64,000 nt of DNA from positions 145,490-209,489 of the forward strand of contig JBDRIT010000025.1 in assembly GCA_043815665.1 (NCBI GenBank). Reading direction: 5' to 3'. This DNA is from Pseudomonadota bacterium. Lineage in GTDB: Bacteria; Myxococcota_A; UBA9042; CAIXZC01. The notes under the pieces were generated by a model. That model was not told where the DNA came from. It saw only the letters and a list, made by a program, of their open reading frames with translations, and searched no databases. The position numbers and the translations under genes are program-made. Below, in pieces: positions 2,352 through 57,824 of this stretch (the stretch's first letter is position 1; each line of letters begins with the position of its first letter).

Positions 2352-2362
2352 GTTTCTCCCCC

Positions 2363-2399: not shown

Positions 2400-2512
2400 C
2401 GCGCCCGGAAGACCCCTTGCGAAGCCATTGTTGTTCCGCTACCCTCTGGCATCCTGGAATGCGTGTACAGCTTTGGTTTGATGTCCTGATCGATGCGAAA
2501 GGTGGTCTGACA

Positions 2513-4702: not shown

Positions 4703-4715
4703 GCGGTGGCGACCG

Positions 4716-9148: not shown

Positions 9149-9186
9149 CCAAGTACCATTCGGCCGTCACAGACACGGAGGTTCCC

Positions 9187-35365: not shown

Positions 35366-38300
35366 TCAGAGCTGGAAACTGAAGAGGCTGAGTGTCCATG
35401 GCCACCCAAGGCCAGTGACAACGTAGACCGTGCCGTTGGTTTCTATCGCTAGCTGTGAGCCTCCCAGCCCGTCATCGACCAGGGGCACAGAGATCTCGTT
35501 CCAGGTCGTTCCATCGAAGGAGTGAAGGGTCAAGCCGGAATTGTTGAACATCGAGTGGAGCTTGGATTCGAAGGGCACCGTCGCTGTGCCGCTGTAGCTG
35601 CTGACAGTCGAGCAGATCTGCCACCCCGTCGCTGCGGTATGGCAGTAGGCGGGTGAGTGCTGTAAGGTCGCGACGATCGTCTCTCCTTGAATCGAAACGT
35701 GGTTGTTTGACGAGGTCTGAGCATTTGTAGGGAGGTCGCCGGGGTCTCCCACGACCGACCATGTGTCGTCGGAGAACCGCATAATGATGTTGTGTACCGA
35801 ATCGGCCCACTCAGGATCCGACGCGCCAATTCCAACCTCGCTCGGCTGCTGCGTGAAGAAGACATAGGGCGTCCCGCCGGTCACTGCGAGGTCAAAGAAG
35901 CCCTGCCCGCCATAGGACCACACACCGAGGCCCTCGGGGCCCGAGTAGCCGACCGGCTCCCAGGTGTTCGTGTCGGTGTCGAGCTTCTTGACGCTCAGCC
36001 GCCAGTTGTAACCCGAGCTTCCGTCCTCATTGTGTATGTAGGCGACGTAGAGGTCACCGTTGTCGTCGAAGTCGATCACGCTGCCGCCTGTCGTGCCGGG
36101 TGCGTGATTCGGTAACGCCTCCCAGGTGCTGTCTGAGTACACCCGGATAGCGCCAGAGAAACCGGAGACGTACAGCTTGTTGTCATTGACCTTGGCAGAG
36201 ATTACGTAGCTGAGCGGCATCTCCAAGCCGTCGCTGGCTGACACCCAGGCTTCCCCGTCCCAGCGGCGCACAGAGACCTCTCCCAAGGCTTCCTGTCCCG
36301 CCCACGCCGCCACGGTGACCAGGTACGGCTCGTCATCAAGGAGAGCCAGCTTGAATTTGTACGTGTTCGCCAGGAAATCTGTCGCCAGCTCCGTCCATTC
36401 GGGGATGATGACGTTGACGCAACCGCTCTCAGGATCGCAGGAGTCGGCGGTGCCTGGGTTGCCGTCGTCGCAGCCGCCCTCGGCGACAGGAACCGTTGCC
36501 GAGGGTGTGTGGTTACAGATGGCGCTTTCACCCGATGTGCAACTGTCCAGGGTGCAGGGGTCGTCGTCGTCACAACCGTCGGGCTCCAGGATCTCCACGG
36601 AAGGCGTGCCCGCGCAGGCGCCCTGGTCGTCGCAGACGTCGAGCAAGGTGCAGACATCCAGATCGTCACATGAGGTCTCCCCGGGCATGTCGCAGGCCTC
36701 GCTCTCCTCCAACATTGGGCATTCGACGCCACCGCAGGCAGGCTCCAGAGTGATCGCACGGCTATGAAGCCGGGTCCCCTGGCAGGTCCCGTCGTCGGTC
36801 TCGCATGACGCCCAGTCACCCCAGTCGGAGACCATGCAGTCGATGGGCACGTTGGTGTGGACGCAGCCGGTGGCTTCTTCGCAGGTGTCCGCGGAGCAAG
36901 GATCCTCATCCGTGCAGTCCACCGCGTCACCGGGCACGCACTGGCCCTCTGCGCAGATGTCGATGCCGGTGCAGGCGTTCTCATCGTCGCAGAGCTCTTG
37001 ATTGGGCGTAAAGACGCAGCCCTCCGCGGGGTCGCAGGAGTCATCGGTGCATGGGTTCTCGTCGTCGCAGACCTCGACGCCGGTGGTCATGCACTGCGAG
37101 TCTGCGCAGTGGTCACCGAGGGTGCAGGCGTCGTCGTCGGTGCACTCTGCCGCGTTCGCTGTGAAGACGCACTCGCCCTCCACGCAGACGTCGTCGGTGC
37201 AGACGTTCTCGTCATCGCAGACCTTGGCCATGCCCGACTGGCACGCACCCTCGACGCAGACGTCGCCCAGGGTGCAGGCGTCGGCGTCGGTGCACTCCAG
37301 GACGTTGTTGGCATTGACACACCCCGTCGCTGGATCGCAGGAGTCATCGGTGCAGACGTTCCCGTCGTCGCAGTCCGGGATCCCCGTGGTCACGCAGCTC
37401 CCCTCCTCGCAGTGGTCCCCCGTGGTGCAGGCGTCCGCGTCGGTGCAGGACTCCAGGTTGTTCGCGAAGACGCAGCCCGACGCGGGGTCGCAGGACTCGG
37501 TGGTGCAGACGTTGCCGTCGTCACAGTTCACGAGGGGCGCCAGCGTGAAGCAGCTCCCGCCGCTGCACATCTCGTCCACGGTGCACGCGTCCCCGTCGTC
37601 GCAGGGCAGGGTGTTGAAGTCGTGGACGCAGCCCACCGCGGGGGCGCAGGAGTCGTCGGTGCAGAGGTTCCCGTCGTCGCAGGGCAGCGCGCCCGTGGCC
37701 GCACAGACTTCGTCCTCGCAGTGATCCCCGACGGTGCAGAGGTTCACGTCGGTGCAAGGGTTGTCGTTGGGGGCGTAGACGCAGCCGGACATGGGATCGC
37801 AGGTGTCCGTGGTGCAGACGTTCTCGTCATGGCAGTTGGTCGGCAGGCCATCTTCGCACACCCCGGCGACGCAGATCGTGGCCATGGTGCAGAGATCCCC
37901 GTCATCACAGGCTGCCCCATCGTTGGCCGGCACGAAGGAGCACTCCCCCGTCCCTGGATCGCAGAAGCTCTCCAGGCACTCGGCCCCCAGCCCCTGGGGC
38001 TTCACGCACAGGGTCCAGGTGTAGGGGGTCACCGCGCACTTGGGCGGCAGGGCGATGAGGTCGCATTGGAGGGCTCCAGCGCAGAGGTCCAGGGCCGCGA
38101 TCTCGTCACAGTCCCCATCGACCGTGCAGCCGCACGGGACCTCGAAGCCGACGCAGACCCCGTCGGTGCAGTTGTCGCTGACCGTGCACGGGTCCATGTC
38201 GTTGCAGGGCACGTGGTTGTCCGGGTGGATGCAGCCGTCCACGGGATCGCAGACGTCGTCGGTGCAGAGGTCGCCGTCGTCGCAGTCGATCGCGTCCCCG

Positions 38301-38923
38301 GTGCACACGCCGGCGATGCAGGTGTCGTTCTCCGTGCAGATCGACGCGTCGTCGCATTCGGTCTCCCACACCAGCGCGTGGTCACAGTCACCGTCGGCCC
38401 CGCAAGAGTCGATGGTGCACACGTTGTCGTCGTCGCAGTCCACTGCCGATCCAGCGCAGATCCCGGCCCCGTCGCAGAGGTCGTCCTCGGTGCAGGGATC
38501 CCCGTCGTCGCAGGCCCCGCCATCGAGGAGTTCGCTGACACAGCCCTCGGTGCCCGCGCAGCTGTCCACGGTGCAGGGGTCCCCGTCGTCGCACTCGCCC
38601 GAGACCATGTCCAGGTTGTCCACCTCGCCGTCACAGTCGTTGTCGAGGCCGTCGCAGATCTCGTCCTCGGGGACGCAGGGCGGGGCCTCTGGTGGCAGAT
38701 CCTCCGGCGCCACGTCGAGATCGTCCGTCAGGACGTCCGACGCGTCCGGCATCATCGCGTCGGGTTCCACCTGGTCACCGGACACCAGCTCCGACACGTC
38801 CGGCTCGACCGCCGTGTCGGTGTCCTGGGTGGGTCCCGTGCATCCGAAGACCAGGACACAGGCCAGGAGGACGGCCGGGCGGACGAAAATCAACCCTGGT
38901 TTCATCATTCTCTCGTTCATCAT
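35366..38923 (-). CDS. Lipoprotein with ~35 tandem Myxo-type Cys-rich repeats (C-x-D-D/E-N-x-C-T-x-D-x-C) and a C-terminal beta-propeller-like domain
   Basis: Lipobox LVFGCTG. Repeats such as CDDGDPCTVDSCAGTEGC. C-terminal ~420 aa are Cys-poor. The ATG overlaps the upstream TGA (ATGA). Confidence 0.75.
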   Translation of the reverse strand: MMNERMMKPGLIFVRPAVLLACVLVFGCTGPTQDTDTAVEPDVSELVSGDQVEPDAMMPDASDVLTDDLDVAPEDLPPEAPPCVPEDEICDGLDNDCDGEVDNLDMVSGECDDGDPCTVDSCAGTEGCVSELLDGGACDDGDPCTEDDLCDGAGICAGSAVDCDDDNVCTIDSCGADGDCDHALVWETECDDASICTENDTCIAGVCTGDAIDCDDGDLCTDDVCDPVDGCIHPDNHVPCNDMDPCTVSDNCTDGVCVGFEVPCGCTVDGDCDEIAALDLCAGALQCDLIALPPKCAVTPYTWTLCVKPQGLGAECLESFCDPGTGECSFVPANDGAACDDGDLCTMATICVAGVCEDGLPTNCHDENVCTTDTCDPMSGCVYAPNDNPCTDVNLCTVGDHCEDEVCAATGALPCDDGNLCTDDSCAPAVGCVHDFNTLPCDDGDACTVDEMCSGGSCFTLAPLVNCDDGNVCTTESCDPASGCVFANNLESCTDADACTTGDHCEEGSCVTTGIPDCDDGNVCTDDSCDPATGCVNANNVLECTDADACTLGDVCVEGACQSGMAKVCDDENVCTDDVCVEGECVFTANAAECTDDDACTLGDHCADSQCMTTGVEVCDDENPCTDDSCDPAEGCVFTPNQELCDDENACTGIDICAEGQCVPGDAVDCTDEDPCSADTCEEATGCVHTNVPIDCMVSDWGDWASCETDDGTCQGTRLHSRAITLEPACGGVECPMLEESEACDMPGETSCDDLDVCTLLDVCDDQGACAGTPSVEILEPDGCDDDDPCTLDSCTSGESAICNHTPSATVPVAEGGCDDGNPGTADSCDPESGCVNVIIPEWTELATDFLANTYKFKLALLDDEPYLVTVAAWAGQEALGEVSVRRWDGEAWVSASDGLEMPLSYVISAKVNDNKLYVSGFSGAIRVYSDSTWEALPNHAPGTTGGSVIDFDDNGDLYVAYIHNEDGSSGYNWRLSVKKLDTDTNTWEPVGYSGPEGLGVWSYGGQGFFDLAVTGGTPYVFFTQQPSEVGIGASDPEWADSVHNIIMRFSDDTWSVVGDPGDLPTNAQTSSNNHVSIQGETIVATLQHSPAYCHTAATGWQICSTVSSYSGTATVPFESKLHSMFNNSGLTLHSFDGTTWNEISVPLVDDGLGGSQLAIETNGTVYVVTGLGWPWTLSLFSFQL

Positions 38924-41484
38924 AAGGACCTCGCACAGCGGAAGCCGATGTCACCGGTCTCGTCGTCGTCCTCGGGCACCCCCGCCCGGGTCGACACCGA
39001 GCAGGCCGCCGCAGCGTCGAGATAGCTGCCGCCGCGGACCACTCTCACGCCGTCACAACCCGTCTCCCAGGGTGGGTACCCCAGGGACGGCGCCCCGATG
39101 TAGCTCGGGTGGTAGCAATCAGACACCCACTCGGAGACGTTGCCGCTCATGTCGAAGAGGCCGGCGGCGTTCGCCAGCTTGCCACCGACCTCGTGCTTCG
39201 TCCCGTCGGAGTTGCCTGCGGTCCAGGCCACGTCGCCCAGACAGGCGCTGGCGCTCCCGCAGACGAACGCCGTGGCGCTGCTCCCGCGCAGGGCGAGCTC
39301 CCACTCGGCCTCCGTGGGCAGGCGCGCCCCGATCCGCTGGCAGAACTCCGCCGCCTGGGTCCAGGCCACGCACTCCACGGGGAACGCAGCGCCGGACGGG
39401 TCGCAGGAGGGCGTCAGACCCATGGAGAACTCGAAGTCCTCCTCCGTGACCTCCATCGCGAGGATCTCGAAGGGCTGCACCGCCACCGGGTGACTGGGGT
39501 ACTCGTCGGGATCGGGACAGATGCCTGTGGGGCAGCCCATCCAGAACTGGCCCCCGGGGATCGAGATCCACTCCAGGTCCGGCACGTTCTGCCCGCAGAC
39601 GCCCACGTAGCAGCCGAAGCCGGGATCGCAGTCCCCGCAGGTACCGCCGCACCAGTCGTCGCCGCACTCCTTGCCGCCGCAGATCGGCGTGCAGCAGGCG
39701 CCCTGGAAGCACTTCCCCGTGGCGCAGGGCTCGCCGTCGGTGACGGGCTCGTTGACGCAGCCCGAGGACGGGTCGCAGGAGTCCACGGTGCAGGTGGTGC
39801 CGTCGTCGCAGGCCGCGGACGCGTCCACGTAGTAGCACCCCTCCGTGGGGTCGCAGAGGTTCGTGGTGCACGCGTCGCCGTCGTCGCAGGGCAGGGGATC
39901 CACGCCGCTGCCGCAGCCACCAAGCGCGCAGGTGTCGCCCACGGTGCAGACGTCGCCGTCGTCGCAGGGCACGGTGTTCGGCGCGTGGACACAGCCCGTC
40001 GCCGGCGCGCAGGAGTCGTCGGTGCAGAGGTTCAGGTCGTCACAGTCCGGCGGCGGGCCGCCGACGCAGACGCCGGTGTCACAGACATCGTCCAGGGTGC
40101 AGGCGTTGCCGTCCACGCACTCCGCGCCGCTGGCCGGTGTGTAGAGGCAGCCGGGCCCCGGGTCGCAGAGGTCCGTCGAGCAGGGGTCACCGTCGTCACA
40201 GTCCACGGCCTCCGGGCCGACGCAGATCCCCTCCGAGCAGATGTCCGCGGTGGTGCAGGCGTCCCCGTCGCTGCACGGCGCCGTGTTGAAGACGTGCTGG
40301 CAACCGACGCCGGGCTGGCAGGAGTCCGTGGTGCAGAGGTTGTCGTCCTTGCAGTTCGTCGTGCCGCCGTTGACGCAGATCCCCGCCATGCAGGTCCCCG
40401 TCTTCGTGCAGATCTCCCCGTCCTCGCAGACGCCGCCCTCGTTGATGGCGACCACGCCGCAGTTCCCCGTGGAGCCGTCGCAGTGCGCAGCGACGCAGTC
40501 GGCGTTCGGCCCCTCCGGCGGCTCCGGACAGGACGGCACGGTGAGGGGATTCACCGCGCAGGTAAAGGGGAAGGTCGCGTAGTCACAGAAGAGGATCCCG
40601 TTGCAGAGGTCGCCGTCCTCCAGGACCAGGCAGTCGACGTCGTTCTCGCAGTCGCAGGGGAGCACGAAGCCGACGCATTCCCCCAGCGCGCACTCGTCGT
40701 CCACGGTGCAGGGGCTCCCGTCGTCGCAGGGCTCGAAGTTCGCGGTGAAGGTGCAGCCCGTCGCCGGCTCGCAGGAGTCGTCGGTGCAGAGGTTGCCGTC
40801 GTCGCAGGTCAGGGGCGTCCCTACGCACAGACCTTCGACGCAGAGCTTTGCGACGGTGCAGAGGTCCCCGTCCCAGCAGGGCACCGCGTCCAGGTCCTCG
40901 AAGGCACAGCCGCTCACCTTGTCGCAGCTGTCCTGGGTGCAGGGGTTCCCGTCGTCACAGTCGGTGAAGGTCCCCTGGCAGACGCCGTCCCCGCAGGTGT
41001 CCCCTGCGGTGCAGGCGTTGTCGTCGTCGCAGGCCACGTCGGTGAGGGACGCGAACTGGCATCCCTTCCCGGGCTCACAGGTCCCTACGATGCAGGGGTT
41101 TGGGTTGGCGCAGAGGGACTGATCCGGGTCCTCGGGCGGGTTGTCCACCACGCCGTCGCAGTCGTTGTCCTGGCCGTCGCAGATCTCCGGCTCGGGGACG
41201 CAGACGATCTCCTCGACCACCTCGACGACGTCGGGCTCGACCACCTCCATGACCAGATCGGGTTCCTCGGTGTCCTGGCCCGGGAGGACCTCCAGCACCA
41301 CCGCGTTGGGGTCCTGGATGCAGACCCCATCGGCACCGCAGACCTCTCCCGCGGGGCACTGCGAGTCGTTCAGGCAGGCGGTCCCGTCCCCGGTCAGCAC
41401 CAGGGTCCCCCCGTCGCAGGCGCCCAGGAGGATCACCAGGGCGAGGACCAGGCCCCGCACCGCACCAGTGGCTGTCCTATTCAT
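38920..41484 (-). CDS. Lipoprotein with Myxo-type Cys-rich repeats and a C-terminal formylglycine-generating-enzyme (FGE-sulfatase/SUMF1) family domain
   Basis: ggagaaggagatcggcaATG. Lipobox LVILLGAC. C-terminus WISIPGGQFWMG...RLPTEAEWE...GNVSEWVSD...RVVRGGSY...GFRCARS. The track ORF's upstream 31 codons are discarded. Confidence 0.75.
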   Translation of the reverse strand: MNRTATGAVRGLVLALVILLGACDGGTLVLTGDGTACLNDSQCPAGEVCGADGVCIQDPNAVVLEVLPGQDTEEPDLVMEVVEPDVVEVVEEIVCVPEPEICDGQDNDCDGVVDNPPEDPDQSLCANPNPCIVGTCEPGKGCQFASLTDVACDDDNACTAGDTCGDGVCQGTFTDCDDGNPCTQDSCDKVSGCAFEDLDAVPCWDGDLCTVAKLCVEGLCVGTPLTCDDGNLCTDDSCEPATGCTFTANFEPCDDGSPCTVDDECALGECVGFVLPCDCENDVDCLVLEDGDLCNGILFCDYATFPFTCAVNPLTVPSCPEPPEGPNADCVAAHCDGSTGNCGVVAINEGGVCEDGEICTKTGTCMAGICVNGGTTNCKDDNLCTTDSCQPGVGCQHVFNTAPCSDGDACTTADICSEGICVGPEAVDCDDGDPCSTDLCDPGPGCLYTPASGAECVDGNACTLDDVCDTGVCVGGPPPDCDDLNLCTDDSCAPATGCVHAPNTVPCDDGDVCTVGDTCALGGCGSGVDPLPCDDGDACTTNLCDPTEGCYYVDASAACDDGTTCTVDSCDPSSGCVNEPVTDGEPCATGKCFQGACCTPICGGKECGDDWCGGTCGDCDPGFGCYVGVCGQNVPDLEWISIPGGQFWMGCPTGICPDPDEYPSHPVAVQPFEILAMEVTEEDFEFSMGLTPSCDPSGAAFPVECVAWTQAAEFCQRIGARLPTEAEWELALRGSSATAFVCGSASACLGDVAWTAGNSDGTKHEVGGKLANAAGLFDMSGNVSEWVSDCYHPSYIGAPSLGYPPWETGCDGVRVVRGGSYLDAAAACSVSTRAGVPEDDDETGDIGFRCARSL

Positions 41485-42865
41485 TGCCGATCTCCTTCTC
41501 CGACACCTTGAACTCGACCCGGCGGTTGGCCTTGCGGCCCTCGGGGGTCGTGTTGTCCCCGATGGGGCGCTGGGCACCGAAGCCCTTCGCGTCGAGGCGT
41601 GCCGCGGGGACGCCCTTGCTGACCAGGTAGGTCACCACGGACTTCGCCCGGTCCGACGACAGCGCGAGGTTGCGGTCCGCGTCTCCCACGTTGTCCGTGT
41701 GCCCCTCGACCCGGATCTGATGCACCGCGGGGTGCGCCAGGATCCAGCGGGCGACCTCGTCCAGCTCCTTCATCGATGCGGGCAGGAGCACGTCTCGATT
41801 GGTCTCGAACTGCACCCGCTGCGCGATCTCCAGGAGCTCCTTCGGGGTCTCCACCGGCGGCGGAGGAGGAGGCGGAGGAGGCGGAGGAGGTGGAGGCGGC
41901 GGAGGCGGAGGCGGAGGCGGCGGAGGCGGAGGTGGCGGAGGTGGCGCCGGGGGCTCAAAGGTGCAGCGCTCGAAGCGGAACCCGGAGGTGACACGGAAGG
42001 CCGCCTCACCCATGCCGCCCACGAGGCCGCCGCCCCCCGCGACGTAGACCCGGGCCCAGTCGCCGACGCAGGCGTCGAGGCCCACCTGGCCCTCCATCGC
42101 GGTGCCATCCGTCGAGAGCCCTCCGACCCAGGAGGAGAACACCGTCATCTCGCCGAGGAGCCCGAGCTTGTCCTCCAGGAACCCCTGACGGAGCCCCAGG
42201 CCCATGGCCAGCCCGCTGCCGGCGTCGAAGCCGACGATGGTCTGCGTCTCCAGGAGCCGGACCCCCGCGTTCAGAGCGATCAACGTCGCGGTGGGGAACC
42301 GGTAGTCCAGAACCACCCGGGCCGCCCCCGAGAACCCGCCGGACCCGGAGTAGGTCCCCGCCGTCGCGGTGGGGAAGCCGATGTCCGCGTCCACGCCGAG
42401 GCCGAAGCCCGTCCTCACCCGCGGGAACGCCAGGAATCGGAGGCCGAGGCGCAGATCACCCAGGCCCCAGGCGTCCGCGGTGGGCGCGCCGGTGATCCCA
42501 GAGCTCCCCGCGGCGAAGAGCGTCACCGGGAGGTTCACCCCCACGGAGAGGCGGCGCCATCGGCTGAACGCGGCGAAGAGATCCCCGGTCAGGAGCTGCT
42601 CCACGGGGTGGAAGGTGGCGTCCCTCCCGGTCCTCTGATCATCGATGACCAGGGGATCCCGGGCGTAGGTGACGAAGAAGCCCCCGGAGAACCCGCCACC
42701 CAGCCAGGCGGCGGTCCGGATCATCATCAGATCCCCCGCGTGGGGGGAGGCCTCGAAGTGCTGCACGTTGAGCTTCGGCTCCCCACCCCGGGCGGGACCG
42801 CCGATGACGGCCGCCAGCAGGAGGACGCCGGCCGCTGCTCCGATTCGAATCCTGTTCATGGACAT
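41477..42865 (-). CDS. OmpA-family protein: N-terminal OM beta-barrel-like domain, ~30-residue polyproline linker, C-terminal OmpA peptidoglycan-binding domain
   Basis: Signal peptide MSMNRIRIGAAAGVLLLAAV. C-terminus RVEGHTDNVGDADRNLALSSDRAKSV...GFGAQRPIGDNTTPEGRKANRRVEF. Its stop lies inside an 8-nt overlap with the next gene's start. Confidence 0.8.
   Translation of the reverse strand: MSMNRIRIGAAAGVLLLAAVIGGPARGGEPKLNVQHFEASPHAGDLMMIRTAAWLGGGFSGGFFVTYARDPLVIDDQRTGRDATFHPVEQLLTGDLFAAFSRWRRLSVGVNLPVTLFAAGSSGITGAPTADAWGLGDLRLGLRFLAFPRVRTGFGLGVDADIGFPTATAGTYSGSGGFSGAARVVLDYRFPTATLIALNAGVRLLETQTIVGFDAGSGLAMGLGLRQGFLEDKLGLLGEMTVFSSWVGGLSTDGTAMEGQVGLDACVGDWARVYVAGGGGLVGGMGEAAFRVTSGFRFERCTFEPPAPPPPPPPPPPPPPPPPPPPPPPPPPPPPPPVETPKELLEIAQRVQFETNRDVLLPASMKELDEVARWILAHPAVHQIRVEGHTDNVGDADRNLALSSDRAKSVVTYLVSKGVPAARLDAKGFGAQRPIGDNTTPEGRKANRRVEFKVSEKEIGNE
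41853..41953 (-). repeat. Simple-sequence coding repeat (GGAGGC/GGAGGT)n on the plus strand, encoding ~30 consecutive prolines
   Basis: Read directly from the DNA. The protein run is PPAPPPP...P. Confidence 0.7.
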
Positions 42866-42925: not shown

Positions 42926-45900
42926 TCAATTCGCTGGACCACAGTAGCCCCCATAGCCGTCCGGGTCCCCGGGCCAGCAGTACCAGGTCCCGGAGTGCCC
43001 GCAGTCCTGGCAGGTCCCGGCCTTCGCACCGCAGTACCCGTTCGACTGCTCGTGCCGGTAGTGGCAGCCCGTCATCCAGCCCTGGTAGGTCAGGTTCTGG
43101 AAGTTCGGGGCACAGCAGCCGGGGCAGCCCTTGCCCCCGGGGTACACGTACCCGCAGTCCTGCGGGCAGTTGCACATGGTCTCTTTGAACTGGCTCTCGC
43201 AGTTCTGGTTTCCGCATGCCAGGTAACACTTGCCGTCGTAGCCGCAGTATTGCTTGTTCTGGTCGGGGCAGACGCCGCAGTACACGCCGCAGACCGGATC
43301 GTTGCCGCAGACCCTCCCCGCGCAGGGCTGGCCGCAGTCCTGGGGGCAGGTGCATTTGGTCTCCCCAGCCTGACACTGCCCATTCCCACAGATCGGGTAG
43401 CAGTTGTTGCCGGAGCAGGTGTATCCGTTGGAGCAGGTGCCGCAGAACTCGCCGCAGACCGGCTCGGTCCCGCAGGTCTTGTTCGCGCAGGGTTGTCCGC
43501 AGTCCTCGGGGCAGTTGCACTTGGTCTCCCCGGGCTGGCACTGCCCGTTGCCGCAGACCGTCACACAGGTCCCCCCGTCGCAGGTCAGGTACTGGGGACA
43601 CGCGGGGCACTCGACACCGCAGACCGGATCGACGCCGCACTCCACATCGACGCAAGGGTCGCCGCAGTCCAGCGGGCAGGTACAGAGGGTCTCGCTCGGG
43701 TCGCAGAGGCCGTTGCCGCAGAGCAACAGGCAGGCGCCCGCGTCGCAGTACTCATCGACCGCACAGGTGCCGCAGCCGAAGCCGCAGACCGGATCCGCGT
43801 CGCACTCGATGCCCGCGCAGGGGTCGCCGCAGTCCTCGGCGCAGGAGCACAGGGTCTCGCCCTTGTCCACCTCGCAGCCGAACTCGCCGCAGGTCGGCGG
43901 GCAGTAGCCGCAGGTGTCGCAGGAGTCGGGGCAGCAGGTCCCGGCCAGGATGCACGCCTCGCTGCAGTCGCAGACCCCGCCGGAGCCGTCGCACTCGCAG
44001 GGGGAGCATGCATACGGGTCGTCGGGGCAGTCCAGGGGGCAATCGCACGAGGTCTCGTCGCCGTTGCACACCCCGTCCCCGCACGTGGGGGGGCAGACGC
44101 CGCAGAGGAGGCACGCGTTCACACAGCAGTTCCCGGCGTCCACGCAGTCCGGTCCGCAGCCGCAGGTCCCCCCGGACCCGCCGCACTCGCACAGGGAGCA
44201 GGTCGACGGATCGTCGGGGCAGTCCGCGGGGCAGGAGCAGGAGTTCTCCTTGCCGTTGCACTGGCCATCGCCGCACTCCGGGACGCAGACCCCGCAGGCG
44301 TCGCAGGAGTCCGCGCAGCAGTTCCCGGTGGCCACGCAGCTCGGGGCGCAGGAGCAGGAGCCCCCGGAGCCGCCGCAGTTGCAGGGGGAGCAGCTGAGGG
44401 GGTCGTCTGGGCACTCCACGGGGCAGGAGCAGGAGTCCTCGCCGTACCCCGGCTCACAGAGGCCGTTTCCGCAGCAGTCACCGCAGTCCTGGGGGCAGGC
44501 CTGGCAGGTCTCGTCCCCGTTGCACTGGCCGTCCCCGCAGGCCGGGGCGCAGTTGCCGCAGAGCTGGCAGTCGTTCGCACAGCAGGTCCCCGTCGCGATG
44601 CAGGCCGCGTCGCAGGCGCAGTTGCCGCCGGTCCCGCCGCACTCGCAGGCTGAGCAGGTCTCCGGATCGTCGGGGCAGTCCGCAAGGCAGGAGCAGCTGT
44701 CCTCCTGGTGCTGGACCTCGCAGAGGCCGTTGCCGCAGCACGGACCGCAGTCGATGGGGCAGCCGCTGCAGGTCTCGCCGTACTCGCAGCTGCCGTTGCC
44801 GCAGACCGCGGGGCAGGCCCCGCAGAGGCCACAGGCGTTGGCGCAGCAGGTCCCCAGCTGGACACAGTCCGGGCTGCAATCGCAGCTCCCCCCGGTGTCG
44901 CCGCACTGGCAGGCCGAGCAGGAGTTGGGGTTGTCGGGGCAGTCCGCGGGGCAGGAGCAGGAGTTCTCCTGGTACTTCGCCTCGCAGGCGCCGTTGCCAC
45001 AGCACGATCCGCAGTCACCGGGGCAGGAGGTGCAGGTCTCGCCCTCCTCGCAGGCCCCGTCGCCGCACTCCGGCGGGCAGGCGCCGCAGGTGTCACAAGC
45101 GTCGGCACAGCAGCTGTTCGTCACGTGGCAGAGGTCGTCACACCAGCAGCTCCCGCCGTTGCCGCCGCACTGGCAGGCAGAGCAGGAATCGAGATCATCT
45201 GGGCAGTCCGTGGGGCAGGAACAGGAGTCCTCTCCGAGGGCCGCCTGGCAGATGCCGTTCCCGCAGCAGCTCCCGCAGTCCGCCGGGCAGGTCCCGCAGC
45301 CTTCGGTGGCTGCGCAGGCTCCGCCCCCGCAGACCGCGGGGCAGGAGCCGCAGGCCGTGCACGCATTGGCGCAGCAGTCCCCGGTGAGCACGCAGGAGGG
45401 GCCGCACTTGCAGGCGTCGCCGCTACCCCCGCACTGACAGGGAGAGCATGTGTCGAGATCATCCGGGCAGTCCGCGGGACAGGAGCAGGAGGTCTCGTTC
45501 TGCTGGGGCTGGCACACCCCGTTGCCGCAACACGGGCCGCAGTCCGCCGGGCAGCTCTTGCAGCTCTCGGCGCCGGTGCACTGCCCGTCCCCGCAGACCA
45601 CGCAGAGGCCGCAGGACGAGCAGATGTTGGCGCAGCAGTTGCCGGTCAGGCCGCAGTCCGGGGCGCAGCTGCAGCTCCCGCCGCTGGTGCCGCACTGACA
45701 GGAGGAGCAGGTGTTCGGGTTGTCAATGCAGTCGGCCTCGCAGGAGCAGGAGGACTCGTTGAAGTTGGCCTCGCACTGCTGGTTTCCGCAGCAGAGCCCA
45801 CAGTCCTGAGGACAGGTCCCGCACTTCTCGCCGTTGTCGCACTGGCCGTTGCCGCAGCACTGGCCGCAGTCCGGCACGCAGGTGAGGCAGGTCTCCCCCT

Positions 45901-46450
45901 GAGCGGCCTTGCACTGGCCGTCCCCGCAGCAGTCGCCGCAGTCCTGCTTGCACGTGCTGCAGCTCTCCCCCTTCCCGGGCTCGCACTTGCCGTCGCCGCA
46001 GCAGATCCCGCAGTCCTGGGGGCAGGTGCCACAGTTCTCGTTGGCCGCGCAGACGCCGTTGGGGCAACAGGGGCCGCAGTCCTGGGGACAGGTGATGCAG
46101 TCCTCGGTCAGGTCGCAGGTGTAGTTGCCGCAAGCCAGGCCGCAGTCCTCGGGGCAGTTGACCTGGTTCTCCATGCCGTTGCATTCCCCGTTGACGCAGC
46201 AATGGCCGCAGTCCTCGGTGCAGTTGCAGGGCGACTCGCCGCTGGCTTCGTCACACTTGCCGTTGCCGCAGAGGGTCGAGCAGTCCTGGGGGCAGCTCTC
46301 GAGCTCGCCCGGGGTGCAGACCCCGTCGCCGCAGTGGACGCCGCAGTCCGCGGGGCAGGTGAGCGCGTTCTCTCCCTTGGCCGAATCGCAGAACAAATCA
46401 CCGCAGTAGGGAAGGCACTTGCGATCCTGGCAGAAGTGGGTGGACTCGCA
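42926..46450 (-). repeat. Intragenic array of Cys-rich coding repeats (three nested periodicities)
   Basis: Periodic CP[AQ]DCG.CCGNG.C in the translation, with corresponding partial DNA periodicity. Confidence 0.7.
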
Positions 46451-47863
46451 GGTGCCGCAGCTCTTGAAGCAGATGGGATCGTAGCTGCACTCGCAGCCGG
46501 TGAAGTTCGGGACGCAGGTGGTGTCCAGGGTCGGGTCCTTCTCGTCCCCTGCGATGAACTTGGGGAAGGGGTTGTCATCGCCCAGGATCCACCCGAGGAG
46601 CTCCGGCGACGCGTAGTCGAAGAGCGTCATCCCCATGATCTCCCCGGCGACCCCCACGTAGGCCTCGACGCCCCACTCCAGGACCCACCAGGGCAGGGCC
46701 TTGTTCAGCAGGTCCTTGATGCCGGCCCGGAGCTGGATGTACACGTCGGCCTGCACGTAGGGGCCGGCCACGCCGAAGATCTTGGCCGCCAGCTTGAGCC
46801 CGGAGTAGACCTTGACCAGGGCCTCGATCCCGAACTCGGGCTCGGTGTAGTCGAAGGATCCGTCGAAGTTGGAGTAGGGGTTGAACCCGTCCCCGCTGTC
46901 CCCGTAGTCCCGGTAGTCGATGCCGACCTCGACGCTGATGCTCGACGTCACCGTGGTCTCGAGGGTGAAGAAGACGCCGACCTCCCAGGCGAGGAACAGC
47001 TCGAGGCTGATGTTCAGCGGGACCGGCCCGATCATGAGCGTTCCGAGGTTCAACGTGGCGAGGGTCTGGCTCCCCTCCATCTTCAAGACGGGCGCCTTGA
47101 TGAGGAAGTCGAGCTCACTCTCCGCCTCGACGAGGGTGCCGACCCGCAGGTGGTAGAGCTGCAGGAGGATGCCGATGTCGATGTCGAACTGGAGGGTCAT
47201 CCCGAAGTCGATGGTCCCGCCGACGGTGATCTGGTCCGTCGTCGTGGCCGAGTTGGCGTCCGCGTCGAAGATCACGATGGGCGGGAAGGTGATTGAGAAC
47301 AGGTCGCCGCCGAGCTCGCTGTACCCGGCGTACAGGGACAACACCGGGGAGCGCTTGACCTCCAGGCCGTCGATCTTGGTCTCGTAGTTGTCCATGTCCT
47401 CGTAGCGGGCGTTGCGCACCAGCTCGATGTGGAGCTCGTCGAAGGCCTCCTCGAGGGTCGCCGGCTCGGTCTCCACGCTGACGGTGCCGTCGGGGTTCAC
47501 GGTCTTGGACTTGACCTTGAACAGCCCGCCCTGGGGCGTCTTGGACGAGGGCCCGAACATCAGGACGTTCCCCTCCACCGCGTCGGCCACCAGGGGGGAG
47601 TCCGCGGCGAGGACCATGGCCCCCGCCGTCCCGGACACGGGGATCGAGAGGACCGTGGCCTCGACCTCATCGGGCAGCATCGTGCGGGTGGTCGCCGGCA
47701 GCTCGTACTCGACCTTCATCACCTCGTCGAGGCCCTTGGGCTTCTTCTTGAGCTGGACCGCTCCGTGCTCCTCGTCGGAGCACGCTGCGACGCCGAGGAG
47801 CAGGGCCAGACCAAGGATCCCGGAAAGCAGATGAATCGTGCGTCGCATGGTGTTCTCCATCAT
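42926..47863 (-). CDS. Giant Cys-rich repeat lipoprotein (1645 aa): ~470-aa N-terminal domain followed by a hierarchical array of C-P-x-D-C-G-x-C-C-G-N-G-x-C modules
   Basis: Lipobox ALLLGVAAC. One nucleotide separates it from the upstream OMP gene's stop. Six ~22-aa units, then five to six ~88-aa super-repeats, then four ~55-aa units. ~25% Cys. Confidence 0.8.
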   Translation of the reverse strand: MMENTMRRTIHLLSGILGLALLLGVAACSDEEHGAVQLKKKPKGLDEVMKVEYELPATTRTMLPDEVEATVLSIPVSGTAGAMVLAADSPLVADAVEGNVLMFGPSSKTPQGGLFKVKSKTVNPDGTVSVETEPATLEEAFDELHIELVRNARYEDMDNYETKIDGLEVKRSPVLSLYAGYSELGGDLFSITFPPIVIFDADANSATTTDQITVGGTIDFGMTLQFDIDIGILLQLYHLRVGTLVEAESELDFLIKAPVLKMEGSQTLATLNLGTLMIGPVPLNISLELFLAWEVGVFFTLETTVTSSISVEVGIDYRDYGDSGDGFNPYSNFDGSFDYTEPEFGIEALVKVYSGLKLAAKIFGVAGPYVQADVYIQLRAGIKDLLNKALPWWVLEWGVEAYVGVAGEIMGMTLFDYASPELLGWILGDDNPFPKFIAGDEKDPTLDTTCVPNFTGCECSYDPICFKSCGTCESTHFCQDRKCLPYCGDLFCDSAKGENALTCPADCGVHCGDGVCTPGELESCPQDCSTLCGNGKCDEASGESPCNCTEDCGHCCVNGECNGMENQVNCPEDCGLACGNYTCDLTEDCITCPQDCGPCCPNGVCAANENCGTCPQDCGICCGDGKCEPGKGESCSTCKQDCGDCCGDGQCKAAQGETCLTCVPDCGQCCGNGQCDNGEKCGTCPQDCGLCCGNQQCEANFNESSCSCEADCIDNPNTCSSCQCGTSGGSCSCAPDCGLTGNCCANICSSCGLCVVCGDGQCTGAESCKSCPADCGPCCGNGVCQPQQNETSCSCPADCPDDLDTCSPCQCGGSGDACKCGPSCVLTGDCCANACTACGSCPAVCGGGACAATEGCGTCPADCGSCCGNGICQAALGEDSCSCPTDCPDDLDSCSACQCGGNGGSCWCDDLCHVTNSCCADACDTCGACPPECGDGACEEGETCTSCPGDCGSCCGNGACEAKYQENSCSCPADCPDNPNSCSACQCGDTGGSCDCSPDCVQLGTCCANACGLCGACPAVCGNGSCEYGETCSGCPIDCGPCCGNGLCEVQHQEDSCSCLADCPDDPETCSACECGGTGGNCACDAACIATGTCCANDCQLCGNCAPACGDGQCNGDETCQACPQDCGDCCGNGLCEPGYGEDSCSCPVECPDDPLSCSPCNCGGSGGSCSCAPSCVATGNCCADSCDACGVCVPECGDGQCNGKENSCSCPADCPDDPSTCSLCECGGSGGTCGCGPDCVDAGNCCVNACLLCGVCPPTCGDGVCNGDETSCDCPLDCPDDPYACSPCECDGSGGVCDCSEACILAGTCCPDSCDTCGYCPPTCGEFGCEVDKGETLCSCAEDCGDPCAGIECDADPVCGFGCGTCAVDEYCDAGACLLLCGNGLCDPSETLCTCPLDCGDPCVDVECGVDPVCGVECPACPQYLTCDGGTCVTVCGNGQCQPGETKCNCPEDCGQPCANKTCGTEPVCGEFCGTCSNGYTCSGNNCYPICGNGQCQAGETKCTCPQDCGQPCAGRVCGNDPVCGVYCGVCPDQNKQYCGYDGKCYLACGNQNCESQFKETMCNCPQDCGYVYPGGKGCPGCCAPNFQNLTYQGWMTGCHYRHEQSNGYCGAKAGTCQDCGHSGTWYCWPGDPDGYGGYCGPAN

Positions 47864-47864
47864 G

Positions 47865-48788
47865 TCAGTTCTCCACCCGCTGCCGGGGCTCCCAGGCTAC
47901 GTGCAGCATCGCTTCCCAGGCCGCGGAGCCCGCCAGATCACCGAACCCGGCGCCGCCGGCGACGCCGATCATCAAGTCTGAACCCGCACGCACCTGCAGG
48001 CCGCCGCGGATCGCGGTGGCGAGGGACCGCTCGCCGGTGAACGCAGAGTCCACCAGGGTGCGGGTCTGGCTGCTCAGAAGGAGCTCCAGGCGATCCCGCA
48101 GGATGGGGATCCGAAGGCCGATCCCCAGGAGCAGCTCGTCGCTCACGGGCGGGGTGAACTCCCGCGCTGCCTTGCGGGCCAGGTAGCCCACGTTGAGGGC
48201 CACGATGAAGCCCTTGATCTGGTAGTCCAGGATCAGCCGCGTGACCGACGTCGGCGCGTCCGCGCCGAAGAGCTTGTCCCCCACGGAGGTCGGCAGGGTC
48301 AGGTCCTGGGCCACCCCGAGGCCGAAGCCCTTGTTGTGGTTGTCCCAGAACTTCGCCTTGAAGGAGAGCCTGAGATCGCCCAGGCCTGCCCCGGCGACCT
48401 GCGTCCACGCTGGATTGACCAGCGCGGGATCCCCGCCCGCTGAGTGGAGCAGCACCGGCAGATCGATGCCGACGCTGGCCAGGCCGAAGAGAGGCAGCGC
48501 GACCTGGAGGTCACCGACGAGCTGGTCGCCCACCAGGGCCACCTCACCCTCGCCCTCGAAGCCCACCGCGACCAGGGGGTCCTTGCGGTAGGTAAACCAC
48601 ACACCCCCGGAGACCCCAAGGTGGGGCCCGACCCGGGTCGTCACCGTGTCGAGGATGTCCCCGGCGTGAGGAGAGGGCTGGAAGTCATCGACGTTGATCT
48701 TCGGGTTGCCTGCATGGGCGAGCGGGCCCGCACAGACACAGAAGATCGTGACAAGAGCCAAGAGGGTACAGTTCGCAGGTCGCACCAT
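47865..48788 (-). CDS. Outer-membrane beta-barrel protein, paralogous to the N-terminal domain of the OmpA-family gene; first gene of the operon
   Basis: Signal peptide MVRPANCTLLALVTIFCVCAGPLAHAG. NPKINVDDFQPSPHAGDIL parallels PKLNVQHFEASPHAGDLM of the OmpA gene. ATG at 48788 preceded by aaggcggtgg. Confidence 0.65.
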   Translation of the reverse strand: MVRPANCTLLALVTIFCVCAGPLAHAGNPKINVDDFQPSPHAGDILDTVTTRVGPHLGVSGGVWFTYRKDPLVAVGFEGEGEVALVGDQLVGDLQVALPLFGLASVGIDLPVLLHSAGGDPALVNPAWTQVAGAGLGDLRLSFKAKFWDNHNKGFGLGVAQDLTLPTSVGDKLFGADAPTSVTRLILDYQIKGFIVALNVGYLARKAAREFTPPVSDELLLGIGLRIPILRDRLELLLSSQTRTLVDSAFTGERSLATAIRGGLQVRAGSDLMIGVAGGAGFGDLAGSAAWEAMLHVAWEPRQRVEN

Positions 48789-48874
48789 GGGGTCCACCGC
48801 CTTCGTGTCAGACTCAGCGCAGAACGCGAGGCGAATTTATCCTGCCTGCTCAATGAAAAGACAATAGACGCCGT

Positions 48875-48942: not shown

Positions 48943-51900
48943 TCACGTGACCCGGTCCCCCGATGGCGGGTGGCCGTACCAGGCAGAGTAGACCTGTGAG
49001 AAGTAGCTGGCGCTCATCCCCACCCTTGCGGCCACCTCTGCCGACGTGTCGAATTCCCCGGATCTCAGCATGGAGCGCGCCTCCTCCAGGCGCAGCTGGC
49101 GGACGAGCTGGACCGGCCCGAAGCCTGTGGCCTCCCGACACCGCCGCTGGAGCTGCCGGGGACTCAGGGCCATCTCCCGCGCCAGGGCCGGCACGGAGAA
49201 CTCAGGATCGGCCAGGTGGACCAGCACGATGGAGCGGAACTTCTCCCAGAAGACCCGGCCCGCCGGCGTCACCTTTATCCCCTCCGGTGACTCTGCCCCG
49301 GCCGCAGTCACAGCGGACGTGCCTGCAGCAACGTCGACCCCCGAACGAACGATCTGGTTGCGTACCCGCGAGAGGAGATCCTTGATCCCGAAGGGCTTCG
49401 CCAGGTAGTCATCGGCGACGGCCAGCCCCTCGGCGCTCGCACCGGGGCCGGACCGCGCCGAGATCAGCACGACCCGCACCTCCGCCAGCTGGGGATTCGA
49501 CCGGATCGCCGCCGCAAGCTCCAGGCCGTCCATCCGAGGCATCATGATATCCGACACCACCACCCGGGGCCGCTCCCTGCGAACGAACTCGAGGGCCTCC
49601 CGACCGTCCCTGGCCTGGGCCACCCGACCGAGGCCGGTGAGGTGTGAGGCGAGGTAGGACCGCATGTCCTCGTTGTCCTCCACCACCAGCACGAGGGGCT
49701 CGTCTTCGCCCCGGTCTTCCCCGTCACCCTGGATTTCAGCCGACGGGACAGCCCCACCCGAGGCCTCCGCCTCGAGCTGATCCAGGGTGAGGTGCTGCAC
49801 CCCCATGGGCAGGCGGACCAGGAAGCGGCACCCCGTCCCCTCGGCGTCATCGAATCCGATCTGCCCGCCGTGGAGCTCGACCAGCTCCCGGCAGAGGGAG
49901 AGCCCGATGCCCATTCCCTGGGGTCTCCATCCCTGTCTGGGCACCTGGCAGAAGCGCTCGAAGATCCGCTCCCTCGCGGCGACGGGGATTCCGGGCCCGG
50001 TGTTGAGGACGGTCAGCGTCACGTACGCTGTGCCCCACCCGTCCTCCTCCTGGCCGGGAGCCGGTCCATGGGTCGAGACCAGGACGCGTCCTCCCCGGGG
50101 GGTGTGCTGCAGGGCATTGGTCACGAGATTGGACAGCACCGTTTCCATGAGATCCGCGTCGAAGTACAGCGACAACTCCCCCGGTCCCGTGTCCGCAGCG
50201 AAGTCCAGGCCCCGGTCAGCCGCGTCGACCTCGAAGCGCTCGACGGTTCGCCGCACGAAGGCGGCGAAGTCCTGCCTGCGGGTTCTGAGCCTCATCGCGC
50301 TGCCGTCCAGGAGGGCGACCTTCACGAGCTGTCCGATCAGCTCGTGAAGGCGTGTCGCGTTTCTCCGGATCACGTCCAGGGTTCGAAGCTCCTCGCCGCC
50401 CGTGCCCCCCAGACAGGCCGCCAGATCCTCCAGGGGCCCCAACACCAGGGCGATGGGGGTCTTGAGCTCGTGGGACACGTTCGCGAGGAACCGGGTCTTC
50501 ATCCGGTCGGTCTCTTCCAGCCGCCGGGCCTGGTCTTCCAGGGTCCCTTCCCGTGCCTTCAGCAGGGCGGTTGCCTCCCTGACCTGGACCTCGAGCTCCC
50601 GCTTCCGACGGCGCAGCCGCCGCGTCCGCTGCCACGCCAGGGCGCCGACCAACACCAGGCCGGCGAAGACCAGCAACGCAATGAACATCCAGGTCTCGTT
50701 GAACGCGGGCCTGCGGTGGACGTCCAGCCGCACCGGCTCCCCCCAATCCAGGAGCCCGGCCTGGACCTCGAAGGTGTATCCACCCGGGGGCAGGTTCGTC
50801 CAGGAGGCGACGCGCCCGGCCCCGGGTGCGCTCCAGGCATCGTCGAAGCCCGCCAGCCGGTAGCGGAACCTCACGTCCTCGGGCCAGACCAGCTCCGGGC
50901 AGTGCCAGCGCACGGAGAAGCCCCTCTCCTCGGGCTCGAGGACGATCCGCTCCGGGATGTCGGACGGATCGACGGTCCGATCACCGTACGTGATGGTCTC
51001 GATGGCCGCCCGGGGAGGGGGCGGCGTCGGGAAGCTCTCCGGGCGCACGCCGGAGAGCCCCACCTGCGTCGGATACCAGAGGAGGCCGTCGGGGGATCCC
51101 GCCAGGGCGGGCTGCATGTATCCGTTGGCTTCGCCGGACGCCATGCCGTCACTCTGGTCCAGGGTCAGCGCGAGGACGTGGTCCCGGTCTGAGGAGAAGT
51201 ACGCCTCCAGCACCGCCCGCTCGAGGATCGAGATGCCCCGGTTGCTGCTCAACCAGATCCGTCCGAGCCGATCTTCGGCTACGGAGTGGATGGTGTCGTC
51301 GGGCAGGCCGGCCGCCCGGCTCACGCACACCCTGGGCCCCGCGGTCATCCCATCCTGCCCCAGACCCACCCTGCAGAGGCCGGAGTCGTCGGTGCCCAGC
51401 CAGGCAACACCGCCGCGGTCGACGGTGACGAAGCGGATGCCGACGCTCCCGAGGCCCGGGTCCGGGCTGAAGGACTCCCGCTCCCCCGACCGATACCGCA
51501 CGAGCCCGCGATCCCGGGTCGCGATCAGCACCGACCCGTCAGGGGCCTCGGCGAACATCCGCACGGTGTCGGAGCCCAGGTCACCGCCCCCCGCCACCCG
51601 CCTCGACGTCCAGGAGCCCCCCTGCTCCTCGATGTTCCAGAGACCGCCCGTGATGTTCGAGTACCAGATCTTCCCGGTCGCGTCCTGGTAGCCAGGCCCC
51701 CGCTGCCAGTTCATGTCACCGAGGGGCGGCAGGGGCACGCACCGGTCCCCGTCCACCTGGCAGATCCCGCCGTTCGAAGGAATCCACACGCGCCCGTCCC
51801 GCAGCAGGATGGGTGGATACGCCGTGATCTTCGCTCCCGCGTCGGGCACGCTGGTTCCGGTCACCGCGATGCGCGTGGCCCCTCCGGCCCCGATCCGCAC

Positions 51901-53085: not shown

Positions 53086-53374
53086 CCTGCTCCTTGCGTG
53101 CATGTGTGTGGGCCAAAGTGCCCCATCCGATGTGGGGGTGGCCCTGCACTCCGCGGTTCCTCCGAATCATCCCATGCCCTCCGACAAATTCAAGCCCTAT
53201 CAACTCTTCCACTGGCACTCCCTCTTGCATGGCGCGCCGGAGGAGCGTATAGAATGCGCACGTCCATCCCGGACTGCGGCGAAGGAAAGACGCCACGACA
53301 CCCAGGCAACAACAGGCGACGGCAGCGCTCCGCATCGAAGCCTTCGAGCTCTCCTCCCTCGTGGATACCACCCC

Positions 53375-53830
53375 GTGAGCGTGGAGATCCAGCCCCTCCA
53401 TGATCTCGACTCGATCCGCCAGCTGATCCGCATCCACGACGCGGCCTGGAAGGGCTCCACGGGGATCCTGGACCTCCTGAGGAACTCCACCACCTGTCTG
53501 CTCGCTCGGGGTCCCCGGGGCCGCATCGTGGCGTACCTCTTCCTCGAGGAGGACCGGTCCCGGGGCTTCTTCGAGATCCAGGACGTGGTGGTGCACCGCC
53601 GCCACCGCCGCAAGGGCTACGGGCGCCTCATCGTGGAGGCGGCCATGGCCCGCTGCTGCGCGCTCAAGCTCCTGGCCAGCGCCAACAAGCCCGGCCTGCT
53701 GCATTTCTACAGCGGCCTCGGGTTCGAGGTAGAGCACCGCATCGAGAACTACTACGACGTGGGGGACGACGCGGTCCGCATGAGCTGGCGAGGTGCGTCG
53801 CCCTCCGGCGGAGGCGCGGCCAATCAGTAG
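53375..53830 (+). CDS. GNAT family N-acetyltransferase
   Basis: Acetyl-CoA-binding region VVVHRRHRRKGYGRLIV. GTG start. ~151 aa. Confidence 0.7.
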   Translation: MSVEIQPLHDLDSIRQLIRIHDAAWKGSTGILDLLRNSTTCLLARGPRGRIVAYLFLEEDRSRGFFEIQDVVVHRRHRRKGYGRLIVEAAMARCCALKLLASANKPGLLHFYSGLGFEVEHRIENYYDVGDDAVRMSWRGASPSGGGAANQ

Positions 53831-57664: not shown

Positions 57665-57824
57665 ACGTCCACCTCGACGTCCACTCGTCGCGCAGGATAC
57701 AGAGTGACTGCGCCCCCCGCAACGGGCTGTTTCAATTCGTTTTGATTTGACCCACCGCTCCTGTTGTCAAGCACCTCCCGAAACCCTACTGTATAGCTCG
57801 CAAGCTGGGGGGGGAGGAGTTCCA

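Follow-up and report, generated by a model that had tools for sequence, protein, structure and literature searches.

What does a domain with the fold of the formylglycine-generating enzyme (FGE) do at the C-terminal end of a long, cysteine-rich lipoprotein? The question is raised by a gene on the minus strand of a 64,000-nucleotide (nt) stretch of contig JBDRIT010000025.1, hereafter the window, which encodes an 854-residue protein with a Cys-repeat region followed by a domain of the Pfam family PF03781. We show below that the domain is not a formylglycine-generating enzyme; because the catalytic residues are lost, it is most likely a binding head. The best overall explanation, which we hold to be somewhat probable, is that the PF03781 domain is a non-catalytic ligand-binding head that works with its neighbour, an OmpA-family protein with a TraB-like outer-membrane barrel. 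What is new is the gene cassette in which the protein stands, not the domain or the protein.

The gene and the domain in question are located as follows.

38920..41484 (-), stop codon included: gene for the 854-residue lipoprotein with a Cys-repeat stalk and an FGE-fold head (open reading frame (ORF) with Pfam PF00526 and PF03781)
38923..39573 (-): FGE-type C-type-lectin-fold domain without the catalytic residues, residues 638-854 (PF03781, PDB alignments, AlphaFold2, Foldseek)

The protein is already public: NCBI MFH1529680.1 is 100% identical over 854 residues, lies on a contig of 235,696 bp and carries the name 'MAG: SUMF1/EgtB/PvdO family nonheme iron enzyme [Pseudomonadota bacterium]' given by the PGAP pipeline (MAG, metagenome-assembled genome), a generic database name that is somewhat misleading here.

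The FGE-type fold without its catalytic residues

The domain is a PF03781 member with an FGE-type C-type-lectin fold. PF03781 spans residues 638-852 with E 2.9e-42 and 145.5 bits against a cut-off of 23.3, covering model positions 4-255 of 255, and the RLPTEAEWE, GNVxEW, RGGS and GFRC motifs are kept in a sequence that ends ...GFRCARSL, with no sorting tag. This family is the best hidden Markov model match, in agreement with the sequence-only reading made earlier of this DNA, and the structure prediction which that reading had proposed as a check recovered the FGE-type fold, with confidence (pLDDT) above 90 across the domain in the AlphaFold2 model (residues 60-276 of the modelled segment). 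When the model was compared with the PDB by Foldseek, 6muj, 5hha, 2y3c and 1y1e were matched at probability 1.0, and the E values against FGE (6muj, 2q17), PvdO (5hha) and TvpA, the variable protein of a diversity-generating retroelement in Treponema denticola (2y3c), were ~1e-17 to 1e-18. The lowest root-mean-square deviation was that to TvpA (2.4 A, TM 0.70), which is also the top PDB sequence match of the domain (E 3.8e-21). PF03781 modules without catalytic function abound, and the domain taken alone is ordinary. As a scaffold for ligand binding in general, the FGE subclass of the C-type-lectin fold is already recognised (PMC5006420).

Mutation of Cys336, Cys341, Ser333, His337 and Tyr340 alters FGE activity (PMC4505483). 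In an alignment with PDB structures the columns concerned correspond to the following residues of our protein.

Cys336 (human), Cys272 (S. coelicolor): Asp823
Cys341 (human), Cys277 (S. coelicolor): Cys828
Ser333: Ser820
His337: Ala824
Tyr340: Ala827
Trp299: Ser784, within GNVSEW

The Cys pair C336/C341 is broken, and of the pocket residues tested Ser333 alone is kept; Trp299 is included as a further residue which we take to determine activity in the FGE pocket. Across the four full-length orthologues, D/G/D/D stands at the C336 column and Arg at the W299 column. In an alignment with the 60 closest homologues no sequence had Cys at the C336 column, and a regular-expression scan for RGGS-x-C-x4-C found the motif in none of the 120 closest homologues listed. 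Compared with FGE itself (human SUMF1, 1Y1E; S. coelicolor, 2Q17/6MUJ), the domain shares the family and the fold at 23-28% identity but is shorter-looped (~215 residues against 255 model positions), is fused to a lipoprotein stalk, and lacks the first catalytic, Cu-binding Cys, Trp299, His337, Tyr340 and a sulfatase partner.

The search for such a partner was equally negative. No major ORF of the window matched the sulfatase family PF00884, the motif C/S-x-P-x-R-x4-[TS]-G occurs in the window in short spurious ORFs only, and the genes called in the orthologous loci include no sulfatase. The sequence-only reading had already remarked that the window holds no sulfatase, and this is correct. It had also left open a SUMF1-like enzymatic role, which fails on the replacement of C336 by D823, of W299 by S784 and of H337 and Y340 by Ala, and on the 0 of 120 homologues with the Cys pair. 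The loss of all catalytic and copper-binding residues, which in its view would mean a binding-only domain, is essentially what we found, in that most of them are lost while Ser333 and the C341-aligned Cys remain.

The remaining Cys is probably structural. Where homologues have a Cys at the C341 column, its presence covaries with that of a second Cys, located three positions before C212 (14/18), a pattern suggesting that this column is normally disulfide-bonded. A free thiol at C828 was considered and set aside on the same covariation. The disulfide equivalent to C218-C365 of FGE is present as C715/C850. In the 60-homologue alignment, the clade is hypervariable in the segment that runs from RGGS to the following invariant Arg; TvpA has its variable residues, those that bind the ligand, in this same part of the fold.

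The stalked lipoprotein and its relatives

From the N-terminus to the head, the protein is built of the following parts.

41416..41484 (-): signal peptide and lipobox, residues 1-23, LLGA-C23 (read from the sequence)
41311..41415 (-): membrane-proximal 4-Cys knot, residues 24-58 (49-60% identity among orthologues)
41200..41310 (-): acidic, poorly conserved linker, residues 59-95 (14-43% identity among orthologues)
39730..41199 (-): Cys-repeat stalk, residues 96-585 (PF00526, DNA repeat families D3-D9, motif count against shuffles)
39574..39729 (-): Cys-rich linker module, residues 586-637, 11 Cys, containing ...CGGKECGDDWCGGTCGDC... (the CGGKECGDDWCGG module; 60-69% identity among orthologues)

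Translation starts at the ATG at 41484, giving a protein that begins MNRTATG, with a GGAGA Shine-Dalgarno sequence 7 nt upstream; a longer GTG start at 41577 is used neither by the orthologues nor in the 854-residue NCBI record. The N-terminal VILLGA-C23 matches the lipobox pattern [LVI][ASTVGI][GAS]C, its Cys is kept in all orthologues, and in the orthologues from loci L080, L081, L084 and L086 the Cys is followed by a conserved [DET]GG. (The comparison covers four further metagenomic lineages on six contigs, represented by L080, L081-083, L084/085 and L086/087.) The protein is predicted from these features to be exported and lipidated at Cys23. Behind the anchor, the 4-Cys knot is better conserved than the adjoining acidic linker, and we propose it as a candidate docking base.

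The stalk opens with a CDGQDNDCDG motif, after which come ~15 alternating 26-residue units of Dicty_CTDC type (PF00526, E 3.8e-25, 87.8 bits against a cut-off of 27). The repeats proper run from about residue 120 to residue 585 and are interrupted by a non-repeat insert of ~95 residues (277-375), which is common to this protein and the paralogue encoded immediately downstream. In the DNA they are visible as 78-nt units at 153-156 nt spacing, likewise shared with the downstream gene, and the motif Cx5C[TS]x3C occurs 8 times in the protein against a mean of 0.2 across 1000 shuffles. The protein holds 100 Cys in total, 89 of them upstream of the head, along a stalk of ~490 residues which, by analogy with TraA, probably forms a rigid, disulfide-bonded rod. 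The linker module between the repeats and the head has low pLDDT in the AlphaFold2 model, and the same CGGKECGDDWCGG module stands ahead of an FGE domain at an unrelated locus (L001). The architecture given in the sequence-only reading, a lipoprotein with a Cys-repeat scaffold and a PF03781 domain, was borne out together with every motif quoted; its description of the N-terminal ~560 residues as repeats was right about the repeats and loose about their extent, since residues 1-95 and 586-637 are not repeats.

The closest relatives are as follows.

P0123: 63% identity, 851 residues, full-length orthologue
P0126: 53% identity, 833 residues, full-length orthologue
P0127: 51% identity, 837 residues, full-length orthologue
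P0134: 48% identity, 1070 residues, orthologue with the FGE domain and an extra Lectin_C
P0190: 32% identity, 1062 residues, more distant, with an FGE head

The Cys-repeat scaffold itself is widespread, being found in at least 4910 database clusters at E <= 1e-20, and its relatives in the genome collection come mostly from uncultured Myxococcales MAGs. Dicty_CTDC proteins of uncultured Myxococcota, typically 1100-1500 residues long, share the 26-residue repeat scaffold of our protein and end in Lectin_C, Fibrinogen_C, Laminin_G_3 (LamG), LTD or Gly-rich heads; among them the FGE head is confined to the small orthogroup of P0123, P0126, P0127 and P0134 and to the distant P0190. Since the relatives bear other C-terminal heads, the FGE domain occupies the place of an exchangeable binding head. 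Among the orthologues, identity is 57-68% in the head and 49-64% in the stalk. The nearest stand-alone FGE-domain proteins (P0001, P0006) are only 47% identical, and the neighbourhoods of these two and of the distant fusion P0190 are unrelated to our locus and without sulfatases.

Other proteins of Myxococcales MAGs join FGE-fold domains to different extracellular scaffolds: Cys repeats with an unannotated middle domain (L001, 18-1694), short Cys repeats (L020, 109-1287) and TSP3 repeats (L058, 4955-7969). By eye, a further ORF (L046, 20-1552) shows a short FGE/C-type-lectin-like segment together with a CNGLDDDCDG motif.

A conserved cassette with two TraB-like barrels

The gene belongs to a run of five tightly packed minus-strand genes, in the order barrel, giant lipoprotein, barrel-OmpA protein, FGE-headed lipoprotein and stalked paralogue. 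Its four companions are listed below.

47865..48797 (-): stand-alone TraB-like outer-membrane barrel, 310 residues, first gene of the cassette (TraB model; PF13557 weak)
42926..47863 (-): giant Cys-rich lipoprotein, 1645 residues with 277 Cys (orthologues 48-71% identical; NCBI MFH1529682.1, 'hypothetical')
41477..42865 (-): TraB-like barrel-OmpA protein, 462 residues, with signal peptide, barrel, poly-Pro linker and OmpA domain (PF00691, NF033763)
35366..38923 (-): downstream paralogue, an 1185-residue lipoprotein with a stalk of the same type, a TSP1-like domain and an unannotated head of ~390 residues (Pfam, ATGA junction)

The order barrel, giant, barrel-OmpA and FGE-headed lipoprotein recurs in L081-083, L084/085 and L086/087, and genes two to five are held in L080, whose contig begins inside the giant gene. 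Identity to the proteins of the window is 46-55% for the barrel, 48-71% for the giant, 50-61% for the barrel-OmpA protein and 48-63% for the FGE-headed lipoprotein. The fifth gene keeps its position in L080 (57% identity), and the downstream paralogue is 41-46% identical to the stalks of the orthologues of our protein. No terminator-like site was found on the coding strand within the cassette. When 79 loci with other Cys-repeat proteins were searched by tblastn with the barrel, the giant N-domain, the OmpA N-domain and the downstream C-domain, no cassette gene was found (0/79), so the cassette is specific to the FGE-headed orthogroup.

The junctions between these genes are close. The start of our gene overlaps the last codons of the upstream OmpA-family gene by 8 nt, reading ATGAATAG, and in the orthologous loci the barrel-OmpA gene is always directly upstream of the FGE gene, with a 4-8-nt overlap in L080-L085 and a 2-nt gap in L086/087. 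At the other end, the stop codon and the ATG of the next gene overlap as ATGA at 38920-38923, which confirms the translational coupling to the next Cys-repeat gene that the sequence-only reading had described. The tighter, conserved coupling is the one to the upstream TraB-like barrel-OmpA gene, and this had been overlooked there, as had the membership of the gene in a conserved four- to five-gene cassette.

Both barrels are related to TraB. For the barrel-OmpA protein the top NCBIfam match is TraB NF033763 (E 1.1e-40, 139 bits, cut-off 700), and its N-terminal 310 residues alone still give TraB as the top match (model positions 13-220, E 1.3e-17); the stand-alone barrel covers model positions 13-298 with E 2e-25 and, set against the orthologues of the barrel-OmpA protein, shows 32-35% identity. 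The two barrels are paralogues with detectable homology to the TraB barrel, and each of their genes directly precedes a gene for a Cys-rich lipoprotein, at a distance of 1 nt for the stand-alone barrel and with the 8-nt overlap for the barrel-OmpA protein.

To our knowledge, TraA/TraB has so far been known only as the receptor for outer-membrane exchange and kin recognition in Myxococcus. TraB combines a signal peptide and an outer-membrane barrel with TSP3 repeats and an OmpA domain. In TraA, a lectin-like head sits on a Cys-rich stalk with a lipidated sorting tag. The two genes overlap, and in an AlphaFold prediction TraA stands with its base on the barrel of TraB (PMC3325183, PMC12045341). 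The upstream barrel-OmpA protein shares the architecture of TraB, namely signal peptide, barrel, linker and OmpA domain, and in its L086 orthologue TSP3 repeats separate the barrel from the OmpA domain, again as in TraB (PMC12045341). Our protein, in turn, resembles TraA in its lectin-fold head, Cys-rich stalk, lipid anchor and overlap with a barrel-OmpA gene, but its head is of FGE rather than PA14-like fold, its repeats are Dicty_CTDC rather than TIGR04201, and its anchor is an N-terminal lipobox rather than a C-terminal MYXO-CTERM. Unlike TraAB, the cassette adds a second barrel, the giant lipoprotein and the third stalked paralogue, and the head of our protein is not polymorphic. In the literature that we searched, we found no description of this conserved TraB-like cassette.

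Further observations concern the individual members. In L086 the giant protein (413-5731) ends in an FGE-sulfatase domain 31% identical to that of our protein, and the orthologue of our protein (7450-10662) has an additional Lectin_C after its FGE domain; lectin-fold heads are accordingly shuffled among the members of the cassette. The N-terminal ~450 residues of the giant lipoprotein (within residues 1-470, 46454-47863) are beta-rich and unannotated, and the protein as a whole has no Pfam or NCBIfam match. An exhaustive HMMER search with this N-domain gave a family of 1426 representative clusters at E <= 1e-3, where a word-indexed homology search had given no match; its AlphaFold2 model (pLDDT 82) consists of a small beta domain and about ten strands of 13-20 residues, which by Foldseek found chance-level matches only in the PDB. 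In the downstream paralogue, the region from about residue 690 to 1185 includes a Spondin-like TSP1 match at 40.8 bits, just below the cut-off of 41, and the C-terminal ~390 residues have no Pfam or NCBIfam match and a sequence pattern resembling a beta-propeller. Between the barrel and the OmpA domain of the upstream protein lies a run of ~35 prolines (41846-41962 (-)), visible in the DNA as a GGN-rich repeat.

Three consecutive paralogous arylsulfotransferase (ASST, PF05935) genes (53824-55467 (-), 55631-57664 (-) and 57747-59414 (+)) and, directly upstream of the cassette, the gene for a 1386-residue hybrid sensor with Reg_prop/Y_Y_Y, HisKA, HATPase, receiver and AraC HTH domains (48943-53103 (-)) were considered as part of the cassette and rejected; the genes flanking the cassette vary from locus to locus, and neither the ASST genes nor the hybrid histidine kinase is conserved beside it in L080-L087. 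The ASST genes, which represent sulfur-related chemistry, are probably unrelated to the FGE-fold protein. Elsewhere, the window holds a matrixin-like (Peptidase_M10) gene (19756-20778 (-)) and a pair of M16 peptidase genes (26321-28920 (+)), and the remainder is ordinary-looking chromosome with ribosomal protein S1, a carboxyl transferase, a GatB domain, and GGDEF and VWA proteins.

A proposed mechanism and its alternatives

How might such a protein work? Under the explanation that we favour, the exported lipoprotein would carry its lipid on Cys23, with the N-terminus anchored to the outer membrane; the conserved 4-Cys knot would lie at the membrane, and the disulfide-stiffened stalk of ~490 residues would keep the head off the anchor, probably at the cell surface. 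The fold, the catalytic loss, the head swapping and the conservation suggest that the FGE-fold head binds a conserved ligand, which may be a glycan or a protein on another cell, on prey or in the matrix. The protein would most likely act together with the upstream TraB-like barrel-OmpA protein; because the two genes overlap, the two proteins would be made in a fixed ratio. From the gene overlap, the conservation of the cassette and the precedent of TraAB, we infer that the knot may dock on the co-translated barrel, which would serve as an outer-membrane platform while its OmpA domain would tie the complex to the peptidoglycan. The protein would in this way be a mirror image of TraA, with the anchor N-terminal and the head C-terminal. 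The second pair of barrel and giant lipoprotein and the third stalked paralogue, which bears another head, point to a multi-receptor cassette for surface adhesion or recognition.

Several points weigh against this explanation. FGE-fold lipoproteins may also be periplasmic scaffolds, as are PorK and GldK. The head is the most conserved part of the protein among the orthologues, unlike the polymorphic variable domain of TraA. Ser333 and C828, which is aligned with the catalytic C341, are conserved, and some chemistry is formally possible. The TraB score of 139 bits lies far under the curated cut-off of 700, making the barrel-OmpA protein a distant relative; the cassette proteins have no Pfam or NCBIfam match to the PA14-like domain of TraA, to TIGR04201 repeats or to MYXO-CTERM, and compared with traAB the genes stand in the opposite order and the anchor at the opposite end.

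The first of these points leads to an alternative that we regard as unlikely, namely that the protein is a periplasmic structural lipoprotein like PorK, GldK and GldJ, whose FGE fold would oligomerise in an envelope-spanning machine together with the barrels and the OmpA anchor. PorK, GldK and GldJ are indeed lipoproteins with a non-catalytic FGE-sulfatase fold, structural at the outer membrane and among the NCBIfam and PDB matches of our domain; barrels and an OmpA domain are available in the cassette, and PorE of the type IX secretion system (T9SS) is likewise of OmpA type; and a lipobox alone is no proof of surface exposure. But the scores are far under the equivalog cut-offs (GldK, TIGR03525, 61.8 against 350 bits; GldJ, TIGR03524, 40.1 against 458), no other T9SS components were found in the window or the orthologous loci, and the T9SS proteins have no Cys-repeat stalk. 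A ~490-residue stalk with 89 Cys suits a protein displayed outside the cell more than a subunit of a ring, and the same is true of paralogues with lectin, TSP1 or fibrinogen heads.

Another alternative, to which we give a similarly low probability, goes further than the explanation favoured here and takes the whole cassette as a hitherto undescribed TraAB-like system of uncultured Myxococcota, in which two TraB-like barrels would operate with two or three stalked, Cys-rich lipoproteins. Such a system would serve cell-cell or cell-prey recognition, or possibly outer-membrane fusion, with an FGE-type lectin head in place of the PA14-like head of TraA. It might even be that the lone Cys at the C341 position captures a partner by a mixed disulfide.

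An enzyme of the SUMF1/EgtB/PvdO group other than FGE, such as a PvdO-like periplasmic oxidase or tailoring enzyme acting on a small molecule or on Cys-rich partners, appears improbable to us. Among the named NCBIfam families PvdO scores best (E 8.8e-20), PvdO does without the FGE cysteines, 5hha is among the top structural matches, and PGAP calls the protein a nonheme iron enzyme. The NF051459 score is, however, 70.9 bits against a cut-off of 500, and no pvd genes were found in the window. The EgtB and SenA models are matched in their C-terminal part alone, with 46 bits where the cut-offs are 360-420; the DinB-type iron-binding domain found at the N-terminus of EgtB, OvoA and SenA is absent, the N-terminal region being Cys repeats here. 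The cassette holds no pyoverdine, ergothioneine or other biosynthetic genes, the candidate pocket residues differ among the orthologues, and the domain is borne by a long structural stalk on which relatives carry lectin-type heads in its stead.

A genuine aerobic, SUMF1-like FGE, tethered to the envelope and oxidising Cys to formylglycine in sulfatases or Cys-rich partners, is very improbable indeed. PF03781 membership, superposition on Cu-bound FGE structures and retention of Ser333, the C341-aligned Cys and the C218-C365-equivalent disulfide agree with it, but are outweighed by Asp at C336 (Gly in one orthologue), Ser or Arg at W299 and Ala at both H337 and Y340, by a Cys pair found in none of the 120 listed close homologues, by the absence of a sulfatase or CxPxR target from the window and the orthologous loci, and by the covariation of the C341-column Cys with another Cys, so that it is probably structural.

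The weakest alternative, that of a TvpA-like variable protein whose C-terminal loops are hypermutated by a diversity-generating retroelement, starts from TvpA as the best PDB sequence match and lowest-rmsd match and another FGE-type-fold lipoprotein, and is refuted for this window by the lack of a template-repeat copy of any FGE-domain DNA in the 64 kb, by the lack of a reverse transcriptase among the annotated ORFs of the window, and by a head that is the most conserved region among the orthologues.

TvpA is informative in another respect. Like our protein, it is a lipoprotein with a non-catalytic C-type-lectin fold of FGE type, one that serves ligand binding in TvpA, and the C341-aligned position is occupied by Cys there too; it differs in that it has no Cys-repeat stalk, whereas the window has no template/variable repeat pair or reverse transcriptase and the head of our protein is conserved.

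The cassette suggests that the design principle of TraA/TraB is more widely used in uncultured Myxococcota, with different heads. If the explanation favoured here is true, it would provide a second, evolutionarily independent example in which stalk-and-anchor receptors can be studied, and a further case in which a lectin fold of FGE type has come to serve as a binding head with no diversity-generating retroelement involved.

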